The translations under genes and the position numbers were made by a program. 17,200 nt of DNA from Octopus sinensis (lineage: Eukaryota), in NCBI RefSeq assembly GCF_006345805.1, contig NW_021824612.1, positions 1 to 17,200 on the forward strand. The letters are read 5' to 3'. Below the pieces are notes generated by a model. That model saw only the letters and a program-made list of their open reading frames with translations. It was not told where the DNA came from and made no database searches. This document shows, one piece after another, positions 6,717-8,054 of this stretch. Each line of letters begins with the position of its first letter. Positions within the stretch are counted from its first letter, which is position 1.

Positions 6717-7999
6717 GCGTAGCACCCCAGTAGGGTCAGGGCTCCTACACAACAGCGGAAGCATTCCAGTTGGGAATCTCTGTTGTGTAGGTCCTGATCC
6801 GAGAGGGGACCTCTTTGTGACAAAGCTTTGTCACGGTGGGTTTTTCTCCTCTTATGAGGGACAGCCGAGCGGACCACTTCTGAGTTATGGCACTCATTAG
6901 TGGTTGTCTTCGAGTTTGTGATTGTGCTGGGGGCCGGCGACGTCTGAGTAGAGACATCGACTTTGGACGGACTTGGAGGAGCCGCTTTTGTCCAGACTGA
7001 TTTCATCGGTTCGGCTTTTACCCAGCGTACTGGGCTTTTTGTCTGTGGGCTCTTCGCAACCCTTGAGGCTGCTGTTGCTGCTTTGGCAGACGGACATCCA
7101 CCGTAGCAAGCCAAGTGCCCAGTGTTCTTGCAGTTAATGCAAGTTTTTGCAGCTGGGACACTCGGTTTCGGCTTGAAACCCGGGCAGTTTTGGTGCCTGT
7201 GTTCTTTACCGCAGAGGAGACAACGGAGTTTTTCGGAGCATCTGTAGGACGTATGTCCGAACTGATTGCAACGGAAGCATCTCGTTGCTGACGGCTTGTG
7301 CCATTCGCAGCGGATATGGCTGAAGCCCGCAGTTATTCCAAAGTCCGATTCTAGACTTTCTCTCAAGTGGAGGTTAAGATCCTCTGTCGAGATCCAATGA
7401 GGGATTCCTTTAAGGACCAAGACTGAGGCCTTCTCAGCTACTGAGGCAAGTTTATGGCCGCCTTCGCCAAACATATTCGATTGAGACAGCTCTGCTTTGA
7501 AAGCAGCAGCATCCTCGGGCGAACTGAATTTTAGAATGAAGGTGCCGGACTTCTGTAAAGTTATCCGGGCTTTCGAAGCAGTTGGAGACTTGGATAAAAG
7601 GTTAAACCTCTTGATCTTTCCAAGTGCCGAGTTTTCGATACTCAGAGAATATGTGAGGTTTGAGCTGTTAGGCTCAGTTGTCGTCTGATGGCATTGGGTC
7701 TCAATGTGTTTTTGAGTCACAGCAGGGTTCGGATGTTCGGTGGGATATTCATCTTTTATGGGTTCGCAAAAGGGCTGTGGCTTTGCCGCTGTTCGTCTTT
7801 GAACATGGGAGCAAGCTTTGATTGATGAGAGATTTTGTTTATTCTTTGACATCCCAAGTTGATTATGTACTGTCTTTAAAATTTTCATAAGATATATGGA
7901 AAAAGTTTTCCTTTTCTTTTTTTTCTTTGTAGCAACAGAAACATTTTTGTTTTTTATAGGAGCTCTTTTTTGTCCCTTTGTGCTAACTTTAGGTGCCAT
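6650..7999 (-). CDS. H2B(1-52)-ORF1 in-frame fusion protein (last ~20 codons run into antisense element B)
   Basis: Uninterrupted frame from the H2B ATG (7999): MAPKVSTK...[16 protein letters not shown]...CFRCNQFGHTSYRC...CLLCGKEHRHQNC...CINCKNTGHLACYGGC. About 31-aa in-frame deletion relative to B. Confidence 0.75.
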   Translation of the reverse strand: MAPKVSTKGQKRAPIKNKNVSVATKKKKKRKTFSIYLMKILKTVHNQLGMSKNKQNLSSIKACSHVQRRTAAKPQPFCEPIKDEYPTEHPNPAVTQKHIETQCHQTTTEPNSSNLTYSLSIENSALGKIKRFNLLSKSPTASKARITLQKSGTFILKFSSPEDAAAFKAELSQSNMFGEGGHKLASVAEKASVLVLKGIPHWISTEDLNLHLRESLESDFGITAGFSHIRCEWHKPSATRCFRCNQFGHTSYRCSEKLRCLLCGKEHRHQNCPGFKPKPSVPAAKTCINCKNTGHLACYGGCPSAKAATAASRVAKSPQTKSPVRWVKAEPMKSVWTKAAPPSPSKVDVSTQTSPAPSTITNSKTTTNECHNSEVVRSAVPHKRRKTHRDKALSQRGPLSDQDLHNRDSQLECFRCCVGALTLLGCYAKVVPAEWGAVVPGFRGADTDV

Positions 8000-8054
8000 T
8001 ATCCACAAAATTTGCAAGTTCTGAAGGGAAAAAATCTCATATAATAAAAAAGTA
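6713..8054 (-). mobile_element. Element C: relative of B whose ORF1 is fused behind H2B 5' flank and 52 H2B codons; 3'-truncated
   Basis: Shares ALGKIKRFNLLSKSPTASKARITLQ and three knuckles with B. 7842-8054 matches H2B 15150-15362. Confidence 0.85.

Follow-up and report, generated by a model that had tools for sequence, protein, structure and literature searches.

How does the ORF1 of a LINE come to begin with the start of a histone H2B gene, and does such a head belong to the family that carries it? The question is raised by a short contig of the 2.7-Gb Octopus sinensis assembly (NCBI RefSeq GCF_006345805.1). The window, that is the whole stretch of 17,200 nt that was analysed, is the entire contig (NW_021824612.1, here C1083), and it holds a histone repeat together with pieces of three related LINE families, A, B and C (Table 1). 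The answer that we prefer, with a probability of about 0.6, is that the H2B piece is the genomic start of an H2B gene, to which one truncated LINE copy has become fused in frame, probably through an insertion of element C at codon 52 that was joined by microhomology. It is likely a dead-end case of the same route that gave family A its mobile H3, H2B and H4 heads.

The contig and its source

The genes of the histone repeat are ordered H2A, H4, H2B, H3. Orientation flips four times along the contig, which contains many 1-nt indels. Family A, including its H3 head, extends over 249-4778 (+), and further A copies are located at 11527-8063 (D), 16920-16171 (E) and 16935-17200 (F). At 12095-12859, H2B (starting at its nt 39), the spacer and the H3 promoter are present a second time, inverted relative to 15242-16015; among the fetched loci, the junction at 12860 occurs on this contig only. 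Adjacent to it, 12861-13140 is a C-terminal transposase remnant that we take, from its motifs, to be Tc1-like, and that is a fixed component of the histone repeat unit on many contigs. The regions upstream of H4, H2B and H3 have a 36-nt repeat in common (13981-14042, 15097-15158, 15980-16015, 12095-12130), a candidate histone promoter element, and two short stretches, 16016-16170 and 1-226, are without match to the histone or LINE components compared.

Table 1. Location of the histone and LINE features described in the text.
Feature	Position	Strand	Remark
H3 head of family A, 29 codons, amplified	249..336	+	
Element A body	337..4778	+	CCHC ORF1, then APE endonuclease and reverse transcriptase
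Element B with fixed degenerate head	4822..6728	+	
Fused H2B-ORF1 frame	6650..7999	-	Open for 449 aa
Tail-to-tail B (+) / C (-) junction, both 3' ends lost	6726..6728		
Element C body, ORF1 only	6726..7846	-	5'-truncated by 53 nt, 3'-truncated
Three zinc knuckles of ORF1, about aa 241-302	7094..7279	-	Middle knuckle read by eye, the other two matched by pattern
Private 90-nt (30-codon) in-frame ORF1 deletion	7341..7343	-	1 match genome-wide
Junction microhomology, 11 nt	7842..7852	-	H2B nt 148-158 against second ATG region of C's normal 5' end
H2B codons 1-52 (plus 2 nt; 158 nt coding)	7842..7999	-	N-terminus of fused ORF, ATG at 7999
H2B upstream DNA, 55 nt	8000..8054	-	Identical to 15150-15204
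16-nt piece bridging H2B flank and element D	8053..8068	+	Identical to B ORF2 at 6627-6642
Element D, separate A-family copy, both ends truncated	8063..11527	-	98% to A
Intact H2B gene	15205..15570	+	Pfam Histone match; part of histone repeat
H3 head of second A copy (E)	16834..16920	-	

The histones are divergent, and the closest named H2B records carry the labels Octopus sinensis (100% identity over 66%) and Vollenhovia emeryi (75% identity over 100%). The ant-labelled H2B (P0006), with 75% identity to the window H2B, is far closer than a typical animal H2B (about 55-60%) and possibly comes from a related co-sequenced organism. On another contig (C12461), a phosphoglucomutase-2 gene is situated beside a B copy (L226:7750-9650). 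It encodes about 560 aa in about 1.75 kb, is interrupted by frame-changing gaps of 20-30 nt (tiny introns), and is mostly 43-55% identical to the listed animal homologs, whatever the phylum and molluscs included, with one record at 95%. Judging from these sequences, the contig seems to derive from a co-sequenced parasite with a compact genome, possibly a dicyemid; dicyemids have a mean intron length of 38 bp and many LINEs, according to the accessible part of PMC6736024.

Structure of the fusion

A first-pass annotation had described the head of element C as 55 nt of H2B upstream sequence, TATA included, followed by 52 near-identical codons. This description was correct, as 7842-8054 (-) and 15150-15362 (+), at the intact H2B gene of the window, are 99.5% identical (212/213 nt, with the single mismatch at 7950), and a TATA-like box is present at about -46 to -40 within 8000-8054. 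The conserved histone promoter word that is found further upstream, in the window only at 15140, 15998 and 12100, is absent from the fusion, where the 16-nt piece from B and then element D cut it off. The frame that opens at the H2B ATG also runs, as had been stated, through all three knuckles without a stop, and its last ~24 aa derive from antisense B sequence, in place of the normal C-terminus. A Pfam search gave no match for the fused ORF, and zf-CCHC matches in the ORF1 of A and B.

The microhomology at the junction is imperfect, with 10 matching letters and two 1-nt gaps, and 5 nt are perfectly shared. The C body beyond it is 98.6-99.8% identical to the copies on contig C2292, and has neither ORF2 nor 3' tail; the 90-nt deletion inside it has shared letters at both ends. 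The sequence of the 16-nt piece at 8053..8068 suggests that it is likely a templated insert. This 16-nt repeat (6627, 8053) was also considered as a target duplication, which was rejected because B does not continue past the second copy. For the C-H2B joint itself no target duplication can be demonstrated, since the 3' end of C is gone. The ORF1 bodies of C and B had been called closely related. They are related, but with 51% protein identity over 304 columns and 75% DNA identity over 289 nt C and B are therefore sister families, and the closeness does not go further than that.

Is the head a feature of family C?

That element C as a family had acquired the H2B head was not borne out. When the best 40 of 69 candidates from a junction-spanning search were scored, the only full match was the window itself, the others being C body only (36) or H2B only (3), and a 23-nt junction pattern with one mismatch allowed also matched once genome-wide. 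The other C loci that were read (14/14) all have their own short 5'UTR and begin with MVKEKKEKM. The 5' ends of C form a ladder of truncations, in which the window copy, 53 nt short, is the deepest one retaining the ORF1 start region. The fusion, with its single match in the genome, is without daughter copies, and probably represents an insertion into an H2B gene that led nowhere; having lost the 3' end and the upstream promoter, this copy would therefore not spread. By itself the C-H2B junction is an ordinary single fusion.

Elsewhere in the assembly, C occurs in several forms. The long ones run on into a B-like ORF2, several copies have target duplications of 12-13 nt, and the C tail is a 4-nt repeat. 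On C2292 (108968-111947; L100, L101) a 1.49-kb form with ORF1 only and its own tail is repeated in tandem, and it has a 12-nt target duplication with an H2B promoter fragment just upstream. ORF1 directly followed by the 3' tail, the trait of a half-LINE, is thus seen in the closest relatives, while the window copy is broken off short of the place where it would show. The head of B is fixed and degenerate, with H2B-, H3- and H4-like pieces; it is the same in 9/9 copies, and 33 nt of it are 94% identical to H3/A. An H4-like motif is repeated twice in this head (4822-5060; L072-L079), and the window copy has one of the repeats deleted. The 5' junctions (L118, L122-L126; L072-L075) often show short tandem repeats of junction sequence, e.g. 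a 13-nt unit up to 5 times, which suggests slippage in second-strand priming.

Mobile histone heads in family A

The idea that heads are swappable did find support, not in C but in its sister family A, by way of H3, H2B, H4 and second H4 heads. Among 40 of 105 candidates scored in the search with the A 5' end (42 rows), 29 rows showed the same H3 head, 8 the body only and 5 H3 only. The H3 head is fused at nt 88 on 17 contigs, with differing flanks (29/42 rows), and the set of body-only rows coincides with the 8 A copies, on 8 contigs, that have a 26-codon H2B head. A 53-codon H4 head is carried by 8 A copies (6 contigs, 6 distinct flanks) and a second H4 fusion by 2 copies. All head classes are in frame, as judged from one or two translated copies per class, and the A body's own beginning is itself an H4-like stretch. 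Two versions of the H3 head and two of the H2B head each match a genomic paralog exactly, and share the body junction.

In every head class one copy is located behind a native or histone-type promoter (L047, L172, L178, L232), and other copies are found in unrelated DNA, with heads that begin 10-30 nt above the ATG. The A heads thus show what is expected of 5'-transducing LINEs: the daughters begin near the histone transcription start, as placed from the head lengths, and the source is behind its native promoter. It is likely, from this arrangement, that A-type elements, on landing in a histone gene, make use of its promoter and start codon. Histone heads of A were also seen on contigs C8744, C10250, C10743, C8677 and others, and they are a stronger finding than the C-H2B fusion. 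On C8744 (139563-163713) tandem units were observed in which A is in place of the DNA between the H3 start and the next H2B 5'UTR, and here H2B and A form a 5.4-kb repeat.

Preference for histone gene starts

The 3' ends of the elements show where they have landed. C-type 3' ends (30 loci, of 40 rows) lie next to histone promoters or 5'UTRs, in sense, at 14/30 loci or, by distinct flanks, at 8/23. Tandem amplification inflates the locus counts of A and C ends. These C flanks were classed by eye, and L194, L198 and L207, with a short H2B-like word only, were counted as non-histone. Of the distinct A 3' flanks, 4/18 adjoin H2B or H2A 5'UTRs (sense) and 1 is at an H4 3' end, and in other fetched stretches A ends at H4 and H3 5'UTRs. 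Roughly half the ends of A and C fall outside histone DNA, and most A copies are without clear target duplications. The probability of the enrichment is below 1e-15, a value that assumes the genome and array sizes and is indicative only. The ends are spread over several positions of H2A, H2B, H3 and H4, and not at one fixed site as in elements of the R1, Tx1 or R2 type. Histone gene starts are a strong preference, not a fixed site, and A, B and C are likely a histone-cluster-seeking LINE group in a compact-genome parasite.

Origin of the H2B piece

In A copies that are not behind a native promoter, the mobile H2B head goes no further than about 10-22 nt above the ATG. The piece on C extends to -55, past the TATA-like box and beyond any mobile head, and it is therefore host DNA in place. 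Insertion into an H2B gene had been suggested, as opposed to capture of an mRNA, and both this reach (-55 as compared to about -22) and a second element at the same site agree with insertion into genomic H2B, or joining to it. The second element came from the search for other insertions at this H2B position and for the displaced 3' half, which gave one case: on contig C4396 the 3' end of an A-type element adjoins H2B nt 152. Its H2B half overlaps that of the window by 5-7 nt, as expected of a target duplication. Two 3'-end-like junctions were seen within H2B, and the one at nt 152 is a single independent event, a coincidence with a rough chance estimate of about 0.07, so that it is no more than suggestive.

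In the mechanism that we propose, a C element would have inserted into codon 52 of H2B, and its 5' end would have been joined at the short microhomology. An insertion in sense behind a histone promoter would cause the element to be transcribed, and a copy in frame within the histone coding region would be translated from the histone ATG. The element RNA would then carry the histone 5'UTR and start, or tail, into new insertions by 5' transduction, and when the new DNA base-pairs with its target the head could be refreshed from whichever paralog is hit. C-H2B is probably the first step of such a head capture, arrested once the 3' end was lost; this end and the upstream promoter would have disappeared later, through local rearrangements.

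It is conceivable that there was no insertion at the site, and that a microhomology-mediated rearrangement at the DNA level, by deletion, inversion or templated repair, brought together an H2B gene and a C copy that were both already present in an unstable array of histone genes. The adjacent junctions do resemble repair products, i.e. the 16-nt templated piece from B, the tail-to-tail join of B and C and the 90-nt deletion, and many deletions and inversions are present in other histone contigs. However, the break is 53 nt from the C 5' end, where truncated insertions join, the fusion keeps both reading frame and sense orientation, another element has its end at this same place in H2B and C targets histone units, and we consider a rearrangement of this kind unlikely. 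A switch of the reverse transcriptase from C RNA to H2B mRNA, founding a mobile H2B-headed C subfamily, would also give an in-frame fusion with a near-identical histone start, and chimeras of such origin are described in the accessible text of PMC4494074. A head made in this way would start at the RNA 5' end and hold no promoter DNA, but the one on C includes the TATA-like box and goes on to -55 where the mobile H2B heads end by about -22, and it exists as a single copy genome-wide, which makes a template switch very improbable.

The junction could also be an artefact, either of a chimeric long read or of the misassembly of a short contig rich in indels. C1083 has many 1-nt indels, and ten out of ten junction windows tested are unique to it among the fetched loci. 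None of the short-read contigs listed (four runs, one sample) bridges the C-H2B junction, although such contigs drop rare variants. At 7842, 7846 and 8054 they follow the parental sequences, at 7341-7343 they lack the deletion, and one for B continues beyond 6725. On the other hand, the window copy differs from the short-read contigs at five plain substitutions (6804, 7176, 7180, 7805, 7807), and those contigs therefore represent it poorly, while the fused frame is clean over 449 codons. We also considered that D, E and F might be fold-back or amplification re-reads of one A template, but their differences from A are mostly at sites that are polymorphic in other copies (20/32 in D, 10/13 in E and 5/6 in F), and they are therefore separate genomic copies. 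Taken with these real polymorphisms, an artefact at the junction has a low probability, and an insertion of C into the H2B gene is still the explanation that we prefer.

Comparison with known elements

The elements have the composition of APE-type LINEs. Exo_endo_phos and RVT_1 were matched by Pfam in the ORF2 of A and the endonuclease in that of B, ORF1 has CCHC knuckles, and the 3' simple-repeat tail and target-site duplication are present in other C copies and absent from the window copy. The search with the reverse transcriptase gave no clade, the best matches being about 40% identical and unnamed, and neither did a PDB search with the endonuclease or an Atlas search. Jockey/I-group LINEs and the ORF1-only half-LINEs (HAL1) are the named classes for comparison. 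The three-knuckle ORF1, the APE and RT domains and no RNase H seen are shared with the Jockey/I group, a likeness in architecture that is not tree-based, and the 1.49-kb C form, ORF1 and short-repeat tail only, resembles HAL1.

R1, R2, the Tx1 clade and Utopia reside, like A and C, in a tandem multicopy gene family, and R1 and Tx1 have an APE endonuclease as in A and B. Here, in contrast, the targets are protein-coding histone genes, the sites are many and are distributed around four promoters, and roughly one copy in two is located elsewhere. Repbase has entries of oyster Tx1 families in histone genes, for which the literature search gave no printed support, and the Drosophila 297 element is known from the H3 TATA box, also without support in that search. 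The latter is likewise a transposon within a histone promoter, but it is an LTR element with a single insertion and no capture of histone coding sequence. The literature search, made outside Repbase, subscription journals and supplements, returned no histone-targeting LINE and no histone-ORF1 fusion.

The accessible parts of PMC4640811 and PMC8869645 name rRNA, tRNA, snRNA and spliced-leader genes, microsatellites, telomeres and other transposons among LINE targets; histone genes are not among the targets in those parts, nor are they mentioned in the accessible part of PMC4494074. As described in the latter, R2 leans on flanking host transcription by co-transcription and the 5' extensions of SINEU are inherited from the flank of a master copy, and both are likely here as well. 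The difference is that the flank captured here is coding sequence, from which ORF1 takes its start codon and N-terminus, and that this has happened repeatedly, from three different histone genes. Chimeras of the U6-L1 type, made by template switch, also have cellular sequence on a truncated LINE 5' end (PMC4494074, same part). The C head differs from them by including DNA upstream of the likely transcription start, and the A heads by being amplified subfamilies with a common junction and not independent chimeras.

Implications

The single C-H2B junction matters little alone, but it points to a histone-cluster LINE group, and exchangeable histone heads on such a group are unusual. A further-reaching reading, which we put forward tentatively and hold to be somewhat less probable than not, is that the histone cluster is the niche of this group: it would seek histone transcription starts, A would have dispensed with a promoter and start codon of its own, and the N-terminus of its ORF1 protein would be a genuine histone tail, that of H3, H2B or H4, which could be exchanged. 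The tail on the ORF1 of A may serve in nuclear import or chromatin tethering, or may be a decoy for histone readers that steers copies to the histone locus. If this niche reading is true, C-H2B is a snapshot of the first step of head capture. The three families would also form a natural series for the replacement of an ORF1 N-terminus, with a fresh single fusion in C, amplified exact heads in A and decayed, stacked heads in B. RNA genes, telomeres or repeats are the niches of those LINEs that are known to seek one, and protein-coding histone genes would add a new safe harbour to these; such a niche would tie retrotransposition to histone (S-phase) transcription.
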